Shown: piece after piece, positions 1 to 13,810 of the stretch | How the letters are laid out: each line of letters opens with the position of its first letter | Position numbering within the stretch: the stretch's first letter is position 1 | Assembly: GCA_043778225.1 (NCBI GenBank) | Contig: JAYWGM010000090.1 | Span: 1 to 14,277, forward strand | DNA length: 14,277 nucleotides | Direction of reading: 5' to 3' | Source: Deinococcales bacterium | GTDB taxonomy: Bacteria; Deinococcota; Deinococci; Deinococcales; JAAFIG01 | Program-made: the position numbers and the translations under genes | Notes under the pieces: model-generated | Seen by the model: only the letters and a program-made list of their open reading frames with translations | Told to the model about the DNA's origin: nothing | The model's database searches: none

Positions 1-55
1 GGTCACGACGAGCGTCTTCGAGGGTACTGAAATGTTCGATGATATTGATAATCAT
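1..55 (-). CDS. ISAs1-family transposase, N-terminal fragment (partial)
   Basis: ATG at 55 gives MIINIIEHFSTLEDARRD, matching the ISAs1/H-repeat transposase N-terminal pattern (..HF..l.DpR). TACCCT, a -10-like box, lies 5 nt upstream. Only 18 codons are visible and the ORF track misses it. Confidence 0.75.
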   Translation of the reverse strand, partial: MIINIIEHFSTLEDARRD

Positions 56-96
56 TCTTTAGGGTACAGCAAGCTCAACTTGGTGCGTTTGCCCTA
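1..96 (-). mobile_element. Left end of an ISAs1-family insertion sequence (continues off the window)
   Basis: The minus strand from 96 reads TAGGGCAAACGCACC, resembling ISAs1 (C/T)AGGG terminal repeats, and is followed 41 nt later by a transposase-like N-terminus. The host FG-GAP repeat consensus (gatgcCAAACTCGAC) resumes abruptly at 97. Confidence 0.8.
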
Positions 97-1783
97 CAAA
101 CTCGACATCATTACCGCAAACTATGGTAATTCCTCGAGTGTCCTCTTGGGCAACGGCAATGGTACATTCCTAGCCAAAGTGGATTACGCTACGGGTATAC
201 AACCTCAATCTGTGGCTGTAGCTGATGTCAATGGGGATGCCAAACCTGACATTATCACCGCAAATTACAATGGTAACTCCTCGAGTGTGCTGCTTGGCAA
301 TGGCAATGGCACTTTTCAAGCCAAAGTGGATTACACCACAGGTGCAGGCGCTAGTTCTGTGGCGATAGCGGATGTCAACGGCGATGCAAAACTCGACATC
401 ATTACCGCAAACTTTGGTGGTAATACCTCGAGTGTGCTGCTTAATAATGGCAATGGTACGTTCCAAACAGGAGTGGTTTACACCACGGGTACAAATCCTA
501 ATTCTGTGGCTATAGCTGATATGAATGGCGATGCTAAACTCGACATCATCACCGCAAACTCTGGGGCTAATACCTCGAGTGTCTTGTTTGGTAATGGCAA
601 TGGTACGTTCCAAGCCAAAATAGATTACACCACGGGTCTAAGTCCCCGTTCTGTAGCTGTAGCTGATATGAATGGCGATGCCAAACTTGACCTGATTACG
701 GCAAACTATTTTGGCAATTCCTCGAGTGTCTTGCTCGGTAATAATGCTTACGGTACATTCCAAGCCAAAACGGATTACACCACGGGTGCAAGTCCTATTT
801 TTGTGACCGTGGCGGATATAAATGGGGATGCAAAACTCGATATGATCACCGCGAACACCAGTGCTTTTTCCTCGAGTGTGCAGCTTGGTAATGGCAATGG
901 GACGTTCCAAGCCAAAACAGATTACCCGACGGGTTCAGGACCTTATTCTGTGGCGATAGCGGATGTCAACAGCGATGCCAAACTCGACCTGATTACCGCA
1001 AATGCCAATGATAATACCTCGAGTGTACTGCTTAACAACGGCAGTGGCGGTTTCCTAGCCAAAACAGATTACGCCACAGGTACACTTCCATTTTCTGTGG
1101 TGGTGGCTGACATGAATGGGGATACTAAACTCGACATCATTACCGCAAACAATGGCACTGGGGTTAATACCGTGAGCCTCCTTTTGGGCAATGGCAATGG
1201 TACGTTCCAAGCCAAAACGGATTTCACCACAGATGCCAATCCTTTTTCTGTGGCAGTGGCTGATGTCAACGGGGATGCCAAACTCGACATTATTACCGCA
1301 AACTTTAATGCCAATTCCTCGAGTGTGCTGCTTGGCAATGGTAATGGGACTTTTCAAGCCAAGACGGATTACGCCACAGGTGCAGGCGCTAGTTCTGTGG
1401 TTGTGGCGGATGTCAATGGAGATACTAAACTCGACATTATCACCACAAATTATTATGGTCATTCCTCGAGTGTGCTGCTTAATAATGGCAATGGTACGTT
1501 CCTAGCCAAAACAGATTACACCACAGGTACAAATCCTAATTCTGTTTCTGTAGCTGATATGAATGGAGATGCCAAACTCGACATCATCACCGCAAACTCT
1601 GGGGCTAATACCTCGAGTGTCTTGTTTGGTACTGGCACTGGTACGTTCCTAGCCAAAACAGATTACACCACGGGTTCGACTCCACTTTCCGTGGCTGTGG
1701 CTGATATGAATGATGATGCTAGACTCGACATCATCACTGCAAACAATCTTGGTAATTCCTCGAGTCTACTGCTGAACCGTTAG
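97..1783 (+). pseudogene. 3' part of an FG-GAP/VCBS repeat beta-propeller surface protein, disrupted by the IS
   Basis: There are 11 full and 1 partial ~49-aa repeats (ADxNGDxKLDIITAN...SVLLGNGNGTF) carrying DxNGD Ca-binding motifs. The first 22 aa of the listed ORF 32..1783 come from the IS antisense strand, and there is no signal peptide. Confidence 0.85.
98..1780 (+). repeat. Tandem ~147-bp FG-GAP coding repeats with a 7-unit (1038-bp) super-period
   Basis: Units 2/9, 3/10 and 4/11 share loop sequences (TGAGASSV, TGTNPNSV, SGANTSSVLFG). Positions 536-593 and 1574-1631 are identical over 58 bp. Confidence 0.95.
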
Positions 1784-1818
1784 CGCCAAACTCTAACTTA
1801 TCTCGAGTTAGAAATAGA

Positions 1819-1862
1819 TATAACGCTCGTATAACGCCAATATACGCCCTGCTTTTTATGCT
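1819..1862 (+). promoter_or_regulatory. Putative activator-dependent promoter: three phased direct repeats plus a -10 box
   Basis: TATAACGC (1819), TATAACGC (1830) and TATACGCC (1841) precede TATGCT at 1857-1862. The RBS AAGGAG is at 1882-1887. Confidence 0.5.
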
Positions 1863-1894
1863 ACCTCGAGAGACAAACCTCAAGGAGTTACGCC

Positions 1895-3940
1895 ATGTTA
1901 AAAAAATCAATGCTGCTTGTATTTTTAATCCTGATTGGAGCTTGTACAACACCACCGATTGTGCCACCACCCAAAGCAGAACCCCCCATTAAAGTTGTCG
2001 GTAGCCCCATCGAAATTGCCCTAACTGGGATTGGCGGCTCTAAACTTTCGGCTCGAGTTCGTCCGCAAACCCTTGACACAGAAGTGAGTAGCCGCATTAT
2101 TTTAGGCGATGCGATTGTCCGCTCGAGTACCGATATTGTGCCACTCGGACAGGCTCGCACTTCTGGACACCGGTATTTGCACGTGACATTACCAATCAGC
2201 CTTCTCGAGGGAACGTTTACTAACCTAACCTTTATGGCAATGAACGACCCAAAAAGCGGCAGCCTGAGCGCGGTTTCAGAACTAAGTCGTTACCCCGGCT
2301 TAGCTGCTTATACCCAATCCGAATTTGATGCACTTGCCGCCAGTATCGCACCTACCAGCCCGATCAGCCTCGAGCCTAGAAGCCAAAGCCCGACGCTGCT
2401 GGCTGGCGAAGAAGATGCGCTGCAAATTTACACTGAAAACGAAGTCTCGAGTTTAGGCAATGTTCTGCCTTATGGTTTTGTGGCGCACAATGGCACAAGC
2501 CGCACCATTACTAGCACAGGCACAATCACGATTGCCATGCGTGTACCGTTGCAGGCTTTAGCCAAAGATGACCCGTACACGATTAAACTGCGCTTTGGAA
2601 TCTATGAGGACAGCACCACGATCATGACCGAATCGCTAGAAGCCCAGTTACCAATCAACCAAGCGGCTTTTAAGGCGGTCAGAACTCGAGTCGGCGGGGA
2701 GTTGCGGGTCATGCCCGGTACAACCAAGTCCATATCAGCACCAATCTATTTGTACTCATCGCCTCGAGTTGCGCCAAGTCAAACAACGCTGACTATTTGT
2801 CAAGTTCGGACGGTTGGCACTGCGATTAGCCCAACAGCATATTTAGTCAATCGCATACCAACTGCGGTAGCCTTAAAGACTCAAGTGATTACCACGGGGC
2901 AAACCCTACCGCTCGAGACCACTATTTCTGATGCGGCTGGCGAGTATTACCTGCCCGCCCAAATAAGCCTGACCGACTCGAGCCTTGGTGGTATCCGAAG
3001 TCAGCATTTAACTGCTTTTGGTGCTGGGGCAACCACAGTTAGCACCAATGTTTGCGGTCTGACTGGTGTCAGTCACTTAAATGTTCTGACCGATATTATT
3101 CCGATTTCGGGTGGAGCATTGCATAGTCTGGCTTTACAATCCGATGATACTGTGGCAGCTTGGGGAAGTAATGGTTTAGGGCAAACAACCATACCAAGCG
3201 ATTTAACTGGTTACTCGGTTCAAGCAGTGGCTGGAGGTTCTTATCATAGTTTGGCATTACAAACCAATGGTGTAGTCAGGGCTTGGGGATATGGTGGTTT
3301 AGGGCAAACAACAATACCAAGTGGCTTGGTTGGTATTGTCGCCATAGAAACAGGCTTAAATCATAATTTAGCCTTAAACAGAACTGGTGGCGTGGTTGCG
3401 TGGGGGTTCAATAGTAACTCTCAAACCGATGTTCCTACCGATTTAACCAATGTCGCGGCAATAACAGGCGGGAATGGGTATAGTTTAGCCCTTAAATCCG
3501 ATGGTCGCCTTGTGGTTTGGGGATCAGAAAACCAATCTGGACAAACCGACATTCCAACTGGCTTAAATGATGTGATTGCGATTAGTTCGGGAGCGTTTCA
3601 TAACCTTGCTTTGCAACAAAACGGTACCGTCGTGGCTTGGGGAAGGAATGACGAGGGTCAGAGTACCGTACCGACCGACTTAACTGGGGTTATTGCGATA
3701 AGTGCAGGGAATTTTCACTCGATTGCCTTAAAAGCTGACGGCACAGTGGTGGCTTGGGGTAGCAATGATTTTGCTCAATTAACTGTTCCTACTGGCTTAA
3801 CGGGTGTTGTGGCAATTGCAGCAGGAGAGGTTCACAACCTTGCCTTAAAAGCCGATGGCAGCATTATCGCATGGGGCTACAGTTCATATGGTCAAACCAC
3901 CATTCCAGTTATTGCACCACTGACGTTCAAAATCCCGTAA
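1895..3940 (+). CDS. Surface lipoprotein: uncharacterised N-terminal domain + Ig-like linker + 7-bladed RCC1-like propeller
   Basis: Signal peptide II with lipobox LIGA-C17 and RBS AAGGAG. Seven ~39-aa repeats (aG..HsLAL..dGtVvaWG.N..GQ..vP) lie at the C-terminus. Confidence 0.9.
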   Translation: MLKKSMLLVFLILIGACTTPPIVPPPKAEPPIKVVGSPIEIALTGIGGSKLSARVRPQTLDTEVSSRIILGDAIVRSSTDIVPLGQARTSGHRYLHVTLPISLLEGTFTNLTFMAMNDPKSGSLSAVSELSRYPGLAAYTQSEFDALAASIAPTSPISLEPRSQSPTLLAGEEDALQIYTENEVSSLGNVLPYGFVAHNGTSRTITSTGTITIAMRVPLQALAKDDPYTIKLRFGIYEDSTTIMTESLEAQLPINQAAFKAVRTRVGGELRVMPGTTKSISAPIYLYSSPRVAPSQTTLTICQVRTVGTAISPTAYLVNRIPTAVALKTQVITTGQTLPLETTISDAAGEYYLPAQISLTDSSLGGIRSQHLTAFGAGATTVSTNVCGLTGVSHLNVLTDIIPISGGALHSLALQSDDTVAAWGSNGLGQTTIPSDLTGYSVQAVAGGSYHSLALQTNGVVRAWGYGGLGQTTIPSGLVGIVAIETGLNHNLALNRTGGVVAWGFNSNSQTDVPTDLTNVAAITGGNGYSLALKSDGRLVVWGSENQSGQTDIPTGLNDVIAISSGAFHNLALQQNGTVVAWGRNDEGQSTVPTDLTGVIAISAGNFHSIALKADGTVVAWGSNDFAQLTVPTGLTGVVAIAAGEVHNLALKADGSIIAWGYSSYGQTTIPVIAPLTFKIP

Positions 3941-3959
3941 TTCGAGCAAAGGAGCAACC

Positions 3960-6188
3960 ATGAAACAGAAAATACATTCCTTGATTGACCTTGTAAAACA
4001 GGTATGCGGTCATTCTGACTCGGAAAAAGCGCAATGCCTTACGCACTCCCCCCAGCGCGGAGCGCTGACCCCCTCGAGTGAGGGGGTTCAAGTACCAGAC
4101 CTTGAACTTAGCACCCCTCTTTTGAGGGGTCGAGCGGAGCGAGGGGGAGTGCGTAAGAGGTCACGTTCTTACACCATCCCTGTTCTGCTAGGCGTAGCAC
4201 TCGCCGCGTGCAATCAGCAAACCATTCCATCAGTCCCCAGCCTAAAACCAGTCGGGGCAGCCTTTACCCTAACTTTTGATGGGCTTGGTACACCCAATTT
4301 TAATGCCAGCCTCTCGAGCAGTATCAGCCCCCAAGCCCTGACTGACCAACAAGCAACTGTTAAACCAATTCGGGTGGTGGCTCGGGGCAGCATGGATTAC
4401 ATTCCAGAAGGGCAGCCGCGTACCAGTGGCTTTCGTTATGTCTATGCGGTGCTATCGGTCAACAGCACCGCTATTCTCGAGAATGTTAGTTTTCTTGGGG
4501 TGCGAAACAGCAGCAGTTCAATTGCAGATACGGCAATAAGTACGGCGATTCGTGCGCCCGGTGGGGTTGCCTTTAGCAGCACCGAACTCAGGACACTGGC
4601 TTTACGTGTTAAACCCGCCCAAGCCAGCACCTATAACTCGGTCACAAAAAAAATAGTGCCATTGCCAAATACCGAAGATACGGTGCAGTACCTGCCCGAA
4701 AGCGCTTTGGATTACGTGCCAGATGGCATGGTTGGTTTACTGCCGTATGGTTTTACTGTCCTGAACAGCACGGGCGGGCGCACCCTCGAGACCACCACCA
4801 ACGCCAACCGCATGATTGTTGGTATGAAAGTGCCTTTGGCAGCCGACCCCGTAAACGACCCATATGCCTTTGCTTTTAGTGCCGTGCCAGTAACGGATTC
4901 TGAAACTCGAGTGACCCAAACTTTAGAAGCCCAAAGCGCCAAAGGCAATGCAGCCGTGGTGGCTCGAGCCGCCGCGCTTGGCAGCAGTGCCAGTATTACG
5001 GCGTTACCATCGGCATTTAACAGCCCAGCCAGCAGCAATACCGTCAATGCTCTGTGCAGTCTTCGCACGGCGGGTAGTGCCACCAACCCAAGCGCCTATT
5101 TGATTAACCGCAGTTTTACGGCTGCTAACCTCGAGCCAGTGGTTCGGGTCATCAGCAAAGGACAAATTCTGCCAACCAGTCTTTGGGTGAACACCGACGG
5201 CGGATATTATTTGCCCGCCCAGAGCATCTCCAATAATACTACCAAGGTACGAGTCGTAGGAAACCGCCTAGAGGCTTTAGAACTCGGTCAAGGCACAATC
5301 ACCGCCACGGCTTGCGGCTACACCATCAACAGTGACTTCAAAGTTCTCAATCCGATTGTCACGGTGGATGCTGGGTATTGGTACAGCCTTGCGATCAAAT
5401 CAGATAGCACAGTCGCGGCTTGGGGCAGCAATGTGGCTGGCGAAACAATTGTACCAAACGATTTAAGCGGTGTGATTTCGGTCAGCGCAGGAAATTTTCA
5501 TAATTTAGCCCTAAAAAGTGATGGTACGGTCGCGGCTTGGGGCAGCAATGGTGCTGGTCAAACCGATGTGCCAACGGGTTTAAGCGATGTGATTGCAGTT
5601 GCCGCAGGGGGAAACTCGAGCCTTGCACTTAAAAACGATGGCACGGTGCTTGGCTGGGGTTGCAATTGCTATGGTCAAGTCAGCATCCCACCCGATTTAA
5701 CCGATGTGGTTGCCATCAGTGTTGGCGGGCTTCATAGTTTAGCCCTGAAAAGTAATGGCACAGTGACTGCATGGGGCGATAATTCTGCTGGACAATTAAA
5801 CATCCCCAGTGGTGTGGCTAACGTTGTGGCAATCAGTGCAGGCTCGGCGCATAACCTAGTCCTTAAAGATGACGGCAGTGTGGTGCAGTGGGGCAACAAT
5901 GGCACAGATTTTACCATGCCAAACACGGTCAGTCAGATTGGTGCGATTGGCACAGGTTCAAACTTTAACCTGACCATCACCTCGAGCCTTGGTGTGATTG
6001 TATGGGGTGATAACACATGGAATCAACTGGATTTGCCGAGCAATTTAGCCAACATGGTGGCTGTGGCTGGCGGCGACCATCATGGACTGGCTCTGAAATC
6101 CGACGGCAGCCTTGTGGTATGGGGAACAAACAGCTTTGGTCAAACCGATGTGCCGGACATCAGCCCATTAACTTTTAAGCTCCCGTAA
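3960..6188 (+). CDS. Paralogous surface lipoprotein with RCC1-like propeller; N-region extended by an in-frame palindromic insert
   Basis: RBS AAAGGAG precedes ATG 3960 and the lipobox is LAA-C84. It shares motifs with the upstream gene (P.GQ.RTSG.RY, LPYGF, M.VPL...DPY, YYLPAQ, C-terminal I.PLTFK.P) and has seven RCC1-like repeats. An alternative in-frame GTG start lies at 4149. Confidence 0.88.
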   Translation: MKQKIHSLIDLVKQVCGHSDSEKAQCLTHSPQRGALTPSSEGVQVPDLELSTPLLRGRAERGGVRKRSRSYTIPVLLGVALAACNQQTIPSVPSLKPVGAAFTLTFDGLGTPNFNASLSSSISPQALTDQQATVKPIRVVARGSMDYIPEGQPRTSGFRYVYAVLSVNSTAILENVSFLGVRNSSSSIADTAISTAIRAPGGVAFSSTELRTLALRVKPAQASTYNSVTKKIVPLPNTEDTVQYLPESALDYVPDGMVGLLPYGFTVLNSTGGRTLETTTNANRMIVGMKVPLAADPVNDPYAFAFSAVPVTDSETRVTQTLEAQSAKGNAAVVARAAALGSSASITALPSAFNSPASSNTVNALCSLRTAGSATNPSAYLINRSFTAANLEPVVRVISKGQILPTSLWVNTDGGYYLPAQSISNNTTKVRVVGNRLEALELGQGTITATACGYTINSDFKVLNPIVTVDAGYWYSLAIKSDSTVAAWGSNVAGETIVPNDLSGVISVSAGNFHNLALKSDGTVAAWGSNGAGQTDVPTGLSDVIAVAAGGNSSLALKNDGTVLGWGCNCYGQVSIPPDLTDVVAISVGGLHSLALKSNGTVTAWGDNSAGQLNIPSGVANVVAISAGSAHNLVLKDDGSVVQWGNNGTDFTMPNTVSQIGAIGTGSNFNLTITSSLGVIVWGDNTWNQLDLPSNLANMVAVAGGDHHGLALKSDGSLVVWGTNSFGQTDVPDISPLTFKLP
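4038..4157. mobile_element. 120-bp palindromic MITE/REP-like element inserted in frame
   Basis: A perfect 15-bp terminal inverted repeat (CTTACGCACTCCCCC 4038-4052 / GGGGGAGTGCGTAAG 4143-4157) encloses four internal hairpins (4053-4067, 4068-4087, 4086-4107, 4113-4130). The element is GC-rich and absent from the paralog. Confidence 0.7.
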
Positions 6189-6225
6189 CTCGAGCCTCTA
6201 TTTCACTTTATCAAAGGAGAAGATC

Positions 6226-7515
6226 ATGAACATCAAAACAATTATCGTTGCGTTTGCGCTCACCACAATCTCGAGCCTCGCCCATGCCCAAGTTGTTCCC
6301 ACACCAGCAGGGCTAACCTTAACTCGAGCCGACGAAGGCAAAATACTGATTGTCCAAAATGGTCAGTTGGTGCTGGTCAGTCCAGAATCTGTTCCGAGCT
6401 TACGCGGTGCAAGGGGTGAAACGGGTTCTCAGGGTGCGGACGGCGCTCGAGGTGCGACGGGCGCTCAAGGTCCAAAAGGTGACACGGGCTTACAAGGTAT
6501 CCAAGGTGCGACGGGCGCTCAGGGTCTAAAAGGTGACACGGGCATACAAGGTATCCAAGGTGCAAAAGGTGATACGGGCGCAGCAGGAGCAGTTGGCGCT
6601 CGAGGGGCGGATGGCGCGGTTGGTCTAACGGGCGCGAAAGGTGACACGGGAGCAGTTGGCGCGACAGGAGCAGTTGGTCCAAAAGGTGATACAGGTTCTC
6701 GAGGAGCAGATGGAGCAGTTGGCGCAAAAGGTGAGACTGGTCTCCAAGGGATTCAGGGTGCAAAAGGCGAAATTGGCGCAAAAGGTGAGACCGGAGTTAA
6801 GGGCGAAAAAGGTGAGACGGGGATTCAAGGCGTAAAAGGCGATACAGGTCTCCAAGGGATTCAAGGCGTAAAAGGTGACACTGGCTTGCAAGGGATTCAA
6901 GGCGTAAAAGGTGACACTGGCTTGCAAGGGATTCAAGGCGTAAAAGGTGATATGGGAATTCAAGGCGTAAAAGGCGACACTGGTGCAAAAGGCGAGACGG
7001 GTTTACAAGGGATTCAAGGCGTAAAAGGTGATACGGGTGTTCAGGGTACAAAAGGTGATACGGGTCTCATTGGACTCACTGGTGCAAAGGGCGAGACGGG
7101 TTTACAAGGGATTCAGGGCGCAAAAGGTGATACGGGTTCTCGAGGAGCAGATGGCGCAGTTGGCGCAAAAGGCGAGACTGGTCTCCAAGGGATTCAAGGC
7201 GTAAAAGGTGAGACTGGCACAACTGGTTTACAAGGATTGAGAGGCGATACTGGAGAAACTGGCTCACAAGGCATCCAAGGTGTGAAAGGTGACACTGGCT
7301 TACAAGGCATCCAAGGTCTCACTGGCTTGCAGGGTATTCAAGGCGTAAAAGGTGATACTGGGGCAACTGGCGAAAAGGGCGATACTGGTGCTAAGGGCGA
7401 GACAGGTAACACGGGTCCAGCCGGTCCAGCCGGTCCAGCCGGAATTCCTTTGGGCAGCTTACCTAAACCACTTGACGAAACTATCTTTTGGCGTTTTGGC
7501 TTTTTTGAGCGCTAA
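6226..7515 (+). CDS. Secreted collagen-like (Gly-X-Y) protein
   Basis: RBS AAAGGAG and a Sec signal ending AHA|Q are followed by a ~40-aa N-terminal segment, 116 uninterrupted GXY triplets and a 21-aa aromatic-rich tail. Confidence 0.92.
   Translation: MNIKTIIVAFALTTISSLAHAQVVPTPAGLTLTRADEGKILIVQNGQLVLVSPESVPSLRGARGETGSQGADGARGATGAQGPKGDTGLQGIQGATGAQGLKGDTGIQGIQGAKGDTGAAGAVGARGADGAVGLTGAKGDTGAVGATGAVGPKGDTGSRGADGAVGAKGETGLQGIQGAKGEIGAKGETGVKGEKGETGIQGVKGDTGLQGIQGVKGDTGLQGIQGVKGDTGLQGIQGVKGDMGIQGVKGDTGAKGETGLQGIQGVKGDTGVQGTKGDTGLIGLTGAKGETGLQGIQGAKGDTGSRGADGAVGAKGETGLQGIQGVKGETGTTGLQGLRGDTGETGSQGIQGVKGDTGLQGIQGLTGLQGIQGVKGDTGATGEKGDTGAKGETGNTGPAGPAGPAGIPLGSLPKPLDETIFWRFGFFER
6406..7449 (+). 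repeat. Collagen GXY coding tract with 36-bp tandem units
   Basis: The tract is 1044 nt, or 116 triplets. Near-identical 36-bp units (GIQGVKGDTGLQ) lie around 6820-6960, and a longer duplication links ~6682-6756 with ~7123-7197. Confidence 0.95.
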
Positions 7516-12466: not shown

Positions 12467-12494
12467 AAAAGGGGCTGCCGTGGCAGCCCCTTTT
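12467..12494. terminator. Bidirectional intrinsic terminator
   Basis: AAAA-GGGGCTGC-cgtg-GCAGCCCC-TTTT lies between the convergent rpmE and aminotransferase genes. Confidence 0.93.
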
Positions 12495-12495
12495 C

Positions 12496-13641
12496 TTATG
12501 CCCGTACCCCAAGTTGCTGGTCAAAAGCAGTAATCAAACCTTTAACGCCAAGCACTTTCTCAAGGGCATCAAAAAAACGATGATAGATGGCTGGTCGGGC
12601 GGATTCGCCCATCAGACCTAAGCGCCAAATTTTACCCGCCGTTTCGCCTAAACCGCCAGTCACAATCACACCATGTTCACGTAAGCCAGTCCGAACTGGA
12701 ACATCGTGAATAAATTCTGGCAAACGCACCGCCAAAACCGTCGGTAAGCGCTCGCTAGGGCGTTCCACAAAGGCGCTAAAGCCAATTGTCTCGAGGGCAG
12801 CCAGTGCCGCCGCACCAACTTCTGTGACCCGCTTTTCTCGAGCCTCGAGTCCTTCGGAAAGTGCCGCTGTCAGGGCAGCATCCAAGGCATAATGCAGTTG
12901 GACTGGCACAGTGTGGTGGTACTCACGGCGATTCCAATAGGCTTGTAAACCTTCAAGGTCGGCATACCAAAGTGGAACTTTTGTTTTTCGATTCTCGACT
13001 GCCTGTATGGCGCTGCTCGAGAACGCCACCGGGGCAACCCCCGGAGGCGCACTGAGGCATTTTTGGCTGCCCGTGTAGGCATAGTCCACGCCCCATTGGC
13101 GCATTTGGTAGGGCATCATCCCCGCCGTGGTCACGGCATCTACGGTCACTAAGCAACCATAGGACTTAGCCAGTTTGGCAATCTCGATGGCTGGATTCAG
13201 TACGCCTGTACTGGTTTCGCCGTGAACCACTGCCACCAGCTTAAAAGTATCGGCTTCGAGGGCTGCCCTCACATCCTCGAGTTGAATGGCTTGACCAATT
13301 GGCGACTTAACAATCGTGACTCGAGCGCCTAAGCGTTCACACATTTCTGCCATCCGATAGCCAAAACTGCCATTGGCGCAAATCAGCACTTTTTCTTGTG
13401 GCTCGAGCAAATTGGTAAAACCAGCTTCCATGCCAAGGCTGCCCGTTCCAGCCAACAAACAAGTAAATGCGGTATCGTCTGTGCCATACAGGGTTTTGAG
13501 GTTTTTTTGGACTCGATCATTGAGCGCAAAAACTTCGGGATCCATATGTCCGCGCATTGGAAAAGACAGGGCGCGTTGGGCGTGTGGCTCGATTGGCGTT
13601 GGACCAGGGGTTAAAAGAACTTGCTCGAGTGGATTGCTCAT
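12496..13641 (-). CDS. Class-V PLP aminotransferase (alanine-glyoxylate / serine-pyruvate family)
   Basis: Motifs [23 protein letters not shown], the PLP-lysine motif [15 protein letters not shown] and WRLGLMG are present. RBS GAAAGGA supports a start at 13641 (MSNPLEQ). Confidence 0.93.
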
Positions 13642-13680
13642 AGTTTTCCTTTCTTGGCACAAACCTGCTCGAGACGACAT

Positions 13681-13768
13681 AAAAAAACTTCTGGTCGCTC
13701 GAGTGATTCGCACAAGACAAAGCCCCGAGTGGGGTTGTCTTGTGCGGTCAAGCTCGTGCGGTCAGAAG
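13681..13768 (-). terminator. Long leader hairpin plus U7 (candidate attenuator terminator)
   Basis: An inner perfect 12-bp stem (13709-13720/13735-13746) with a CCCC/GGGG cap is closed by outer CTTCTG/CAGAAG pairing. U7 follows immediately on the minus strand (A7 at 13681-13687). Confidence 0.65.
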
Positions 13769-13771
13769 CAT
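13748..13771 (-). CDS. Putative leader peptide MLLTARA
   Basis: ATG CTT CTG ACC GCA CGA GCT TGA begins 8 nt after TACAAT and forms the 5' arm of the leader hairpin. Confidence 0.45.
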
Positions 13772-13779
13772 CTATGGCT

Positions 13780-13810
13780 ATTGTAAGCACAAAAAGGGTC
13801 TTTTCGTCAA
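13780..13810 (-). promoter_or_regulatory. Promoter of the aminotransferase leader
   Basis: The minus strand reads TTGACG (13810-13805)-N19-TACAAT (13785-13780). The spacer is long. Confidence 0.55.

Follow-up and report, generated by a model that had tools for sequence, protein, structure and literature searches.

Upstream of an aminotransferase gene in a Deinococcales genome, a seven-codon open reading frame that ends Ala-Arg-Ala forms part of one arm of a long hairpin, and the locus raises the question of whether translation of so short a frame could decide if the gene is transcribed. The locus lies on the minus strand of the window, by which we mean the whole stretch of 14,277 nucleotides that was analysed. 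Comparison with related genomes leads us to regard the leader as very probably a real, conserved attenuator and, with somewhat less assurance, as a sensor of alanine that reads the supply of charged tRNA-Ala and permits read-through when a ribosome stalls. The leader has those sequence features of a ribosome-mediated attenuator that could be checked, namely a conserved frame, a predicted terminator and Ala control codons, and the genes behind such leaders are most likely switched on as alanine runs short.

The putative promoter comprises a -35 hexamer, TTGACG (13805-13810), matched by TTGAC-type hexamers at the same place in relatives of the family, and a -10 hexamer, TACAAT (13780-13785), which lies 8 nt upstream of the ATG of the upstream open reading frame (uORF), as in a leaderless-type start. 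The 19-nt spacer is longer than usual; most relatives carry TAnnnT 5-12 nt upstream of the uORF start, which supports the -10 assignment. The uORF itself (13748-13771; ATG at 13771, TGA at 13750-13748) encodes MLLTARA and is supported by conservation and by a frame-blind test described below. Its codons 2-3 supply CUUCUG (13763-13768), the 5' arm of the terminator closing helix according to folding and the leaders of the same family, and its CGA-GCT (Arg-Ala) codon pair (13751-13756), invariant across aminotransferase, alaS and Streptomyces plasmid loci, is the proposed sensing site. Directly 3' of the stop codon, folding places an inner hairpin, hairpin A (13709-13746). Beyond it, CAGAAG (13693-13688) and a run of seven T residues (13687-13681) make up the 3' arm and U-run of a predicted intrinsic terminator (13681-13693), giving an imperfect hairpin of 81 nt closed by CUUCUG/CAGAAG. 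The aminotransferase ATG, at 13641, is 39 nt past the T-run and is preceded by a Shine-Dalgarno-like AAGGA (13647-13651). Sequence and folding bear out what a preliminary description of this DNA had noted: the putative promoter, the near-leaderless seven-codon ORF, the closed hairpin and the U7.

The leader region folds at -64 kcal/mol (z = -6.52), and none of 200 shuffles was equally stable. A consensus scanner called neither the window's promoter, the spacer of which falls outside 16-18 nt, nor its terminator, the loop of which is too long. A search of the 4227 families of Rfam 15 at E up to 1 returned no match at 13642-13810; the leader is neither a T-box riboswitch nor another curated Rfam element. 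The preliminary description had named a dispersed repeat among the findings that would undo its reading, and this we could rule out: the hairpin is single-copy in the genome, with only self and self-complement matches below E 0.3. Of 2182 comparable short ORFs close to a promoter in the same genome, 25 contain CGA-GCN, and in 9 of these the pair lies outside a CTCGAG site. When the scan was relaxed, 146 of 12405 short ORFs contained CGA-GC; 37 of the 146 have a T-run, and among these 37 a -35 was present only at the window's ORF. One look-alike, MGNLPRAS before glutamate dehydrogenase (contig C61), was rejected, being out of frame inside the gdh coding sequence and at a CTCGAG site. The hexamer CTCGAG occurs 24,877 times in this genome, about 25-fold above the uniform-composition expectation, and resembles a highly iterated palindrome.

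The gene behind the leader (12496-13641, minus strand) encodes a class V PLP aminotransferase of the alanine-glyoxylate / serine-pyruvate type, 381 residues long (Pfam Aminotran_5). Its best match in the PDB is 2YRI, both by sequence (E 4.6e-96) and by fold (Z 52.4, rmsd 1.3 Å, 352 aligned), an entry titled as alanine-pyruvate aminotransferase with 2-methylserine; alanine-glyoxylate and ureidoglycine-glyoxylate aminotransferases rank just after it, and no NCBIfam equivalog passes its cut-off for this protein. The accessible part of PMC9309667 holds nothing on this aminotransferase. Elsewhere in the window, a hairpin with A- and T-runs at 12467-12494, where the aminotransferase gene and that of ribosomal protein L31 converge, is probably a bidirectional terminator, and positions 2-7515 of the plus strand hold a cluster of repeat proteins, identified by eye: one with FG-GAP-like repeats, two that resemble lipoproteins and have RCC1-like repeats, and one that is collagen-like (Gly-X-Y).

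Orthologues of the aminotransferase are present in 272 of the 363 genomes of the order, a tally that takes in one genome (G327) left out of all other counts, and upstream regions were gathered for 171 loci, of which three (L012, L018, L145) were dropped for having less than 150 nt upstream. The named relatives of the window's genome are Deinococcales metagenome assemblies, and all loci come from relatives, so the conservation counts are not independent samples. A uORF with an in-frame CGA-GCN pair precedes the aminotransferase at 139 of 148 loci across four families, several cases having been resolved by eye: 14 of 16 in f1, the family of the window; 67 of 74 in f2, which appears to be Truepera-like; the single locus of f4; and all 57 loci of f5, which appears to be Thermus/Meiothermus-like. 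A fifth family, f3, apparently Deinococcus-like, has the CGA-GCN leader at none of its 20 aminotransferase loci. The three likely family labels were drawn from the size and composition of the genomes and from how closely their proteins resemble 2YRI. Conservation among orthologues, which the preliminary description had proposed as a check, is thus found in f1, f2, f4 and f5 and fails at the Deinococcus-like loci.

The leader peptides range from MRGRAS to 43 codons, most having 6-11 residues, with only Arg-Ala fixed and 0-8 codons between it and the stop. In the frame-blind test, in which the start was chosen from the promoter and the frame ignored (27 loci gave no call and 2 were left out), CGAGC was in frame and stop-free in 118 of 122 callable leaders; the distance from start to CGA took 11 different values from 6 to 99 nt, all multiples of 3. 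A search for Arg-Ala in any codons found CGA in every leader that survived inspection. The Ala codon of the 95 distinct uORFs is mostly GCT (81), with GCG in 9, GCA in 4 and GCC in 1; the five nucleotides CGAGC are invariant, and it is precisely at the third position of that codon that variation starts. At 142 of the 148 loci the leader has one or two Ala codons, with no run; these loci comprise the 139 with the pair and three exceptions without it, L022 and L023 (MIPPVAHR) and L132 (MHSA). L189 has CGA-GTT and no Ala codon, with CGA, hairpin and terminator kept, and the leader is lost at five aminotransferase loci. At L098 and L100, where the start at the 5' end has disappeared or lies in another frame, an internal ATG is in frame with the pair.

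All 16 leaders of f1 build a helix abutting the U-run (0-1 nt) from uORF codons 2-5, with closing pairs that changed between genera; this helix was read sequence by sequence because RNAalifold on the alignment, where gaps misaligned the arms, gave only 3 pairs. In equilibrium models that assume a ribosome footprint ending 13 nt from the P site, pairing next to the window's U-run falls from 1.00 unmasked to 0.08, 0.02 and 0.03 with the Arg, Ala and stop codons, respectively, in the A site. On stalling, mean U-run pairing in these models falls from 0.96 to 0.34 in f1 (n = 14) and from 0.89 to 0.44 in f5 (n = 50); the automatic U-run call is missing at 17 of 136 loci, and some calls are misplaced. 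Because a ribosome at the stop codon masks the arm much as a stalled one does (0.03 versus 0.02), the switch must be kinetic: in the model, a ribosome anywhere on the window's uORF should block termination, and dwell time would be the switch. The window has no separate antiterminator helix, and its stalled and stop-codon states fold into the same open structure. Comparison and folding in f1 thereby support a modelled terminator that uses the uORF as its 5' arm and needs no separate antiterminator, as originally proposed, and favour the accompanying idea that stalling masks this arm and quick release permits termination. Another proposal, not supported here, concerns TGACCGCAC, which is present twice (13764-13756 and 13750-13742) and had been taken to allow alternative pairing registers; the double copy occurs in only 3 of 16 f1 leaders, which argues against a functional register switch.

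The helix between uORF and 3' arm covaries in f5, with changes on both sides at 4 of 4 pairs, and so provides the covarying stem for which the preliminary description had suggested looking. The whole f5 structure beats 500 of 500 shuffles on four of five measures, as well as all slid controls, with 93.4% of cells paired versus 81.0% in shuffles that are uncorrected for kinship. For L085 and some other f5 leaders the model regains the terminator with the ribosome at the stop codon (a classical 3:4 arrangement), which places the stall near the CGA-GCN pair. In f2 the models give a local terminator in every state (0.78-0.82, n = 54), a search by folding found no conserved antiterminator, and a co-transcriptional test leans weakly to the opposite polarity (0.29 stalled versus 0.45 at stop, n = 63); leaders of the f2 type are found before alaS as well. 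All families have a hairpin directly after the uORF stop, the equivalent of which covaries in f2 and f5. In the models it plays an antiterminator part only in some f5 leaders, and hairpin A may possibly serve as a polymerase pause or a ribosome roadblock. When f1, f2 and f5 leaders are read by eye, a pyrimidine-G step recurs about 8-11 nt past the post-stop hairpin, a spacing that fits the consensus for hairpin-stabilised polymerase pauses.

We propose that a ribosome would load at the 5' end of the transcript and, with ample alanine, would finish the uORF and leave before the polymerase makes the U-run some 60 nt further on; with the ribosome gone, the long hairpin would close and transcription would stop. 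When alanyl-tRNA is scarce, the ribosome would wait, its P site on CGA and its A site on the Ala codon, covering the 5' arm, and the polymerase would read into the aminotransferase gene, the product of which would supply alanine. A less supported part of the scheme is that the rare CGA may lengthen the pause, one or two Ala codons replacing a run.

The same motif occurs before a second gene. Of 62 alaS loci in the order (that of this genome and 61 others), 16 have a CGA-GCN leader, 13 in f5, 2 in f2 and 1 in f1. A motif-blind search of alaS for a promoter, a uORF and a T-run returned 20 loci: 14 have CGA-GCN; five lack it and have at least two Ala codons (MRASASAAS, MKPSSFAQATR, MTAYPFLPAA, MLTCSTIKAAI and MTSPAAHA); and one has neither CGA-GCN nor multiple Ala codons and folds weakly. 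A sixth CGA-less variant, MTPTFHLAAE, was found by eye. The alaS gene of this genome is apparently leaderless, with no leader found, and the CGA-GCN leader is absent from ald at 6 loci in f1, f2 and f5 genomes. CGA-GCN is also absent from this genome's leaders before ilvB-, trpE-, asd-, cysS-, leuS-, pheS- and metG-like genes, which were named by eye from their N-termini.

In f3, where the leader is missing, a GCAA-N5-TTGC box overlaps the -35 of the aminotransferase orthologue in 11 of 11 loci of genus g7 (L026-L035 and L037, about 40-100 nt upstream of the gene). The interval between ald and a divergently oriented gene contains this box too, in 5 of 5 genomes (L207-L211, upstream of ald); in the one copy scanned, the divergent gene is of the Lrp/AsnC type, and regulators of this type answer alanine. 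The box sits on the aminotransferase -35, yet well upstream of the apparent ald -10, positions that suggest repression of the aminotransferase and activation of ald. Such repression would fit a gene that is active at low alanine. These boxes probably mark an alanine regulon in genus g7, and the aminotransferase gene would be governed by an RNA switch in four families and by a probable Lrp-type repressor box in the fifth. Alanine appears to be the best-supported signal because the leader motif also occurs at alaS, is absent from the other leaders, and the f3 box is common to the aminotransferase and ald.

The preliminary description had left open whether the Ala codons or the CGA codon cause the stall. 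The conserved unit appears to be the CGA-GCN pair, with Ala as the part that is probably sensed. The share of CGA among Arg codons is 3.7-3.9% in the aminotransferase genes of f5 and f2, 13.9% in those of f1 and 18% in this genome. CGA can be decoded by inosine wobble, and yeast has inhibitory codon pairs such as CGA-GCG. A tRNA-Arg(ACG)-type pattern is found in 47 of 48 genomes; a UCG-tRNA pattern is found in 25 of 48, about the control level, and 10 of its loci, when checked, comprised 2 true tRNA-Arg(UCG) genes in arrays, 2 tRNA-Pro(CGG) genes and 6 with no tRNA. Because the ACG-type tRNA is near-universal and a tRNA-Arg(UCG) is confirmed only in the tRNA arrays of this genome and of G006, most of these organisms probably decode CGA through inosine wobble. 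In the available part of a Salmonella his-leader study, CGA is slow (PMC4046918).

These features led us to consider, tentatively and at somewhat less than even chances, that CGA-GCN serves two or more phyla as a dedicated codon-pair sensor, in which a wobble-decoded CGA in the P site would slow the next Ala codon. If so, a single Ala codon could report a shortage of alanyl-tRNA in place of the textbook run of cognate codons, and the pair would be a bacterial regulatory counterpart of the yeast inhibitory-pair effect. The idea draws its best support from six leaders in which extra Ala codons replace CGA-GCN; it is weakened because CGA is common at other Arg positions of the uORFs (26 of 55 in f2 and 17 of 48 in f5) and because this genome has a gene for the cognate tRNA.

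The same attenuator might instead gauge arginine or general ribosome speed through the slow CGA, which we consider unlikely. CGA is the least variable codon, the uORFs are CGA-rich at those other positions, L189 keeps CGA without any Ala codon, and, in the part of the work available, the mycobacterial whiB7 uORF answers many translation stresses, all of which would suit such a sensor. However, an arginine or speed gauge does not explain why the motif accompanies the aminotransferase and alaS yet is missing from all the ilvB/trpE/asd/cysS/leuS/pheS/metG-type leaders of this genome, or why the CGA-less leaders L218, L221, L242, L247, L251, L269, L132, L022 and L023 keep or add Ala codons; the Lrp-type box that connects the orthologue with ald likewise points to alanine.

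We give distinctly less credence to the view that CGAGC is an RNA-level element, a pairing partner or a protein site (for AlaRS, for example), with uORF translation secondary. Five invariant nucleotides would fit it, as would the pairing of CGAG, to CUCG in the window and to GCUCG in the Streptomyces leaders, and the A of CGA is predicted to be paired in 9 of 14 f1 leaders, in 26 of 63 f2 leaders and in the Streptomyces leaders that were folded, so that pairing may explain part of the conservation of CGA. Yet this A is predicted to be unpaired in 52 of 56 f5 leaders, the frame survives insertions of up to 99 nt, variation begins at the third base of the Ala codon, and L098 and L100 have an in-frame internal ATG where the 5'-end start fails, all of which argue for translation through the pair.

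Still less probable is a catabolic switch of opposite polarity, in which excess alanine, glycine or serine would arrest the ribosome through the Arg-Ala peptide and induce a degradative aminotransferase, on the model of tnaC/speFL-type arrest peptides. Alanine-glyoxylate aminotransferases usually consume alanine, and the folding of f2 leans weakly this way; against this stand peptides that are mostly 6-11 residues long and variable, with no fixed distance from Ala to the stop, a constraint on the codon CGA beyond the residue alone, the same leader before alaS, a gene that is normally starvation-induced, and the position of the f3 box, which suggests repression at the aminotransferase and activation at ald. 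A constitutive leaky terminator or dispersed repeat with an incidental uORF is largely refuted and can be given hardly any weight, since, for all that the abundance of CTCGAG yields chance CGA-GC ORFs and the f2 terminators appear unswitchable in models, the hairpin is single-copy, the window's CGAGC lies outside any CTCGAG site, and frame and codon are kept over four families and two unrelated genes.

How, then, does an alanine-sensing leader of this kind compare with known systems? In the trp, his and leu attenuators the position of the ribosome on the leader ORF decides whether the terminator forms; the window's leader would share this logic, but it has no run of control codons, and f1 leaders have no 2:3 antiterminator. 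In E. coli pyrBI the ribosome directly covers the 5' arm of the terminator, as we propose here, whereas the signal there is UTP, sensed through polymerase pausing with no tRNA involved, and here it would be a tRNA. Arrest peptides of the TnaC/SpeFL type keep their peptide sequence and its distance from the stop constant; with only Arg-Ala fixed in an otherwise variable series, the leader is, as judged from these peptides, not an arrest peptide.

Three reports, each available to us in part, bear more closely on the leader. Streptomyces lividans alaL is a leader peptide upstream of alaS, predicted from RNA-seq and presented as a hitherto undescribed type (Droste et al. 2021, PMC8079986, Table 4). 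Like the window's leader it is short, contains Ala (its peptide, MNVIGRNIFATARATSSPVAAA, includes A-R-A-T) and belongs to a set that stands before an alanyl-tRNA synthetase gene; unlike it, alaL is longer and ends in an Ala run. The available account of alaL counts six alanines and leaves the CGA codon unmentioned. In Deinococcus deserti, a member of the same order, 14 leaderless leader peptides are given in Table S9 (de Groot et al. 2014, PMC4007540), and alanine, alaS and aminotransferases are not represented among them; these too are uORFs at the transcript 5' end before amino-acid and tRNA-synthetase genes, but most have several cognate codons, whereas leaders of the window's type have one or two Ala codons beside a fixed CGA. 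The mycobacterial whiB7 uORF controls termination, as established by experiment, answers alanine starvation and raises the alanine aminotransferase aspC (bioRxiv 10.1101/2023.06.02.543512). It resembles the window's leader in tying uORF-controlled termination to alanine, which for the window is a prediction; it differs in being Ala-rich (25-40% Ala) with nearly all amino acids represented, in having a separate antiterminator, in working through a transcription factor, and in responding to many amino acids and antibiotics. The preliminary description, which knew of no classical alanine attenuator, must be amended in light of the alaL prediction and the alanine-responsive whiB7 uORF. As far as these sources go, alanine attenuation itself has already been reported; the novelty lies in the invariant CGA-GCN pair and in this leader family, neither of which we found described in a search of the open literature.

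Among plasmid records of the Streptomyces group, the only Streptomyces sample, CGA-GCN precedes alaS-type genes in 8 of 9. The A-R-A of alaL homologues is encoded GCG CGA GCG in 6 of 6 records; two of three full-length Streptomyces alaS genes have a different uORF with GCG CGA GCT, and the third is operon-internal. CGA accounts for 1.9% of Arg codons in those Streptomyces coding sequences. The CGAGC of these leaders also pairs with a downstream GCUCG, and structure therefore confounds the codon argument there. No U-run is evident in the alaL plasmid homologues, the folds of which differ from that of the window's leader when compared by eye. Ten alaS loci of other taxa on plasmid records have no such leader, and the sole viral-contig match to the alaL pattern was rejected, as it sits in unrelated sequence.

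Alanine is abundant in proteins, yet few alanine attenuators have been found, whiB7 having been tested and alaL predicted. With the present family come about 150 natural variants, from an order to which a standard model organism for ribosome work belongs; the family may also tie a so far uncharacterised class V aminotransferase to alanine supply, and it links to Streptomyces alaL through a codon pair unmentioned in the accessible account of that leader. It also makes a general question testable: can codon context, in the form of a slow codon read by wobble in the P site, make one codon a bacterial starvation sensor?

Several further observations concern alaS leaders and their surroundings. The f5 aminotransferase leaders L098 and L113 resemble the alaS leaders L217, L219 and L195, with the same insertion and an MKPL.. 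segment, which suggests exchange between aminotransferase and alaS leaders in f5; in some leaders an internal start replaces the one at the 5' end or is present in addition to it. Seven alaS leaders appear to be decaying (L216, L223-L226, L237, L240), with the terminator end retained and the start codon, uORF or promoter lost or broken by an inserted repeat. In G011 and G013 the alaS gene (L198, L200, L270, L271) is a single open frame of more than 1000 codons whose match to the family model is split in two, which points to an in-frame insertion near model position 375. On Streptomyces plasmids, L289 and L290, before full-length alaS, carry a uORF of 35-40 codons that ends GARAICVELEN and has strong alternative hairpins, distinct from alaL, and their DNA recurs on three more plasmid records.

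The window's genome (G000) also holds other candidate leaderless leader peptides, before ilvB-, trpE-, asd-, metG-, pheS-, leuS-, cysS- and proS-like genes, together with MPQCCEL before a gene of 623 aa and a Phe/Tyr-rich leader before a sugar-binding-like protein; the contigs with such candidates are C1, C19, C28, C32, C52, C63, C91, C94 and C101. Contig C19 (L276) carries a tRNA array of 17 genes within 3 kb that includes the unusual tRNA-Arg(GCG) and tRNA-Arg(UCG), and much of the tRNA set of G000 is apparently doubled; G006 (L274) has a similar array.
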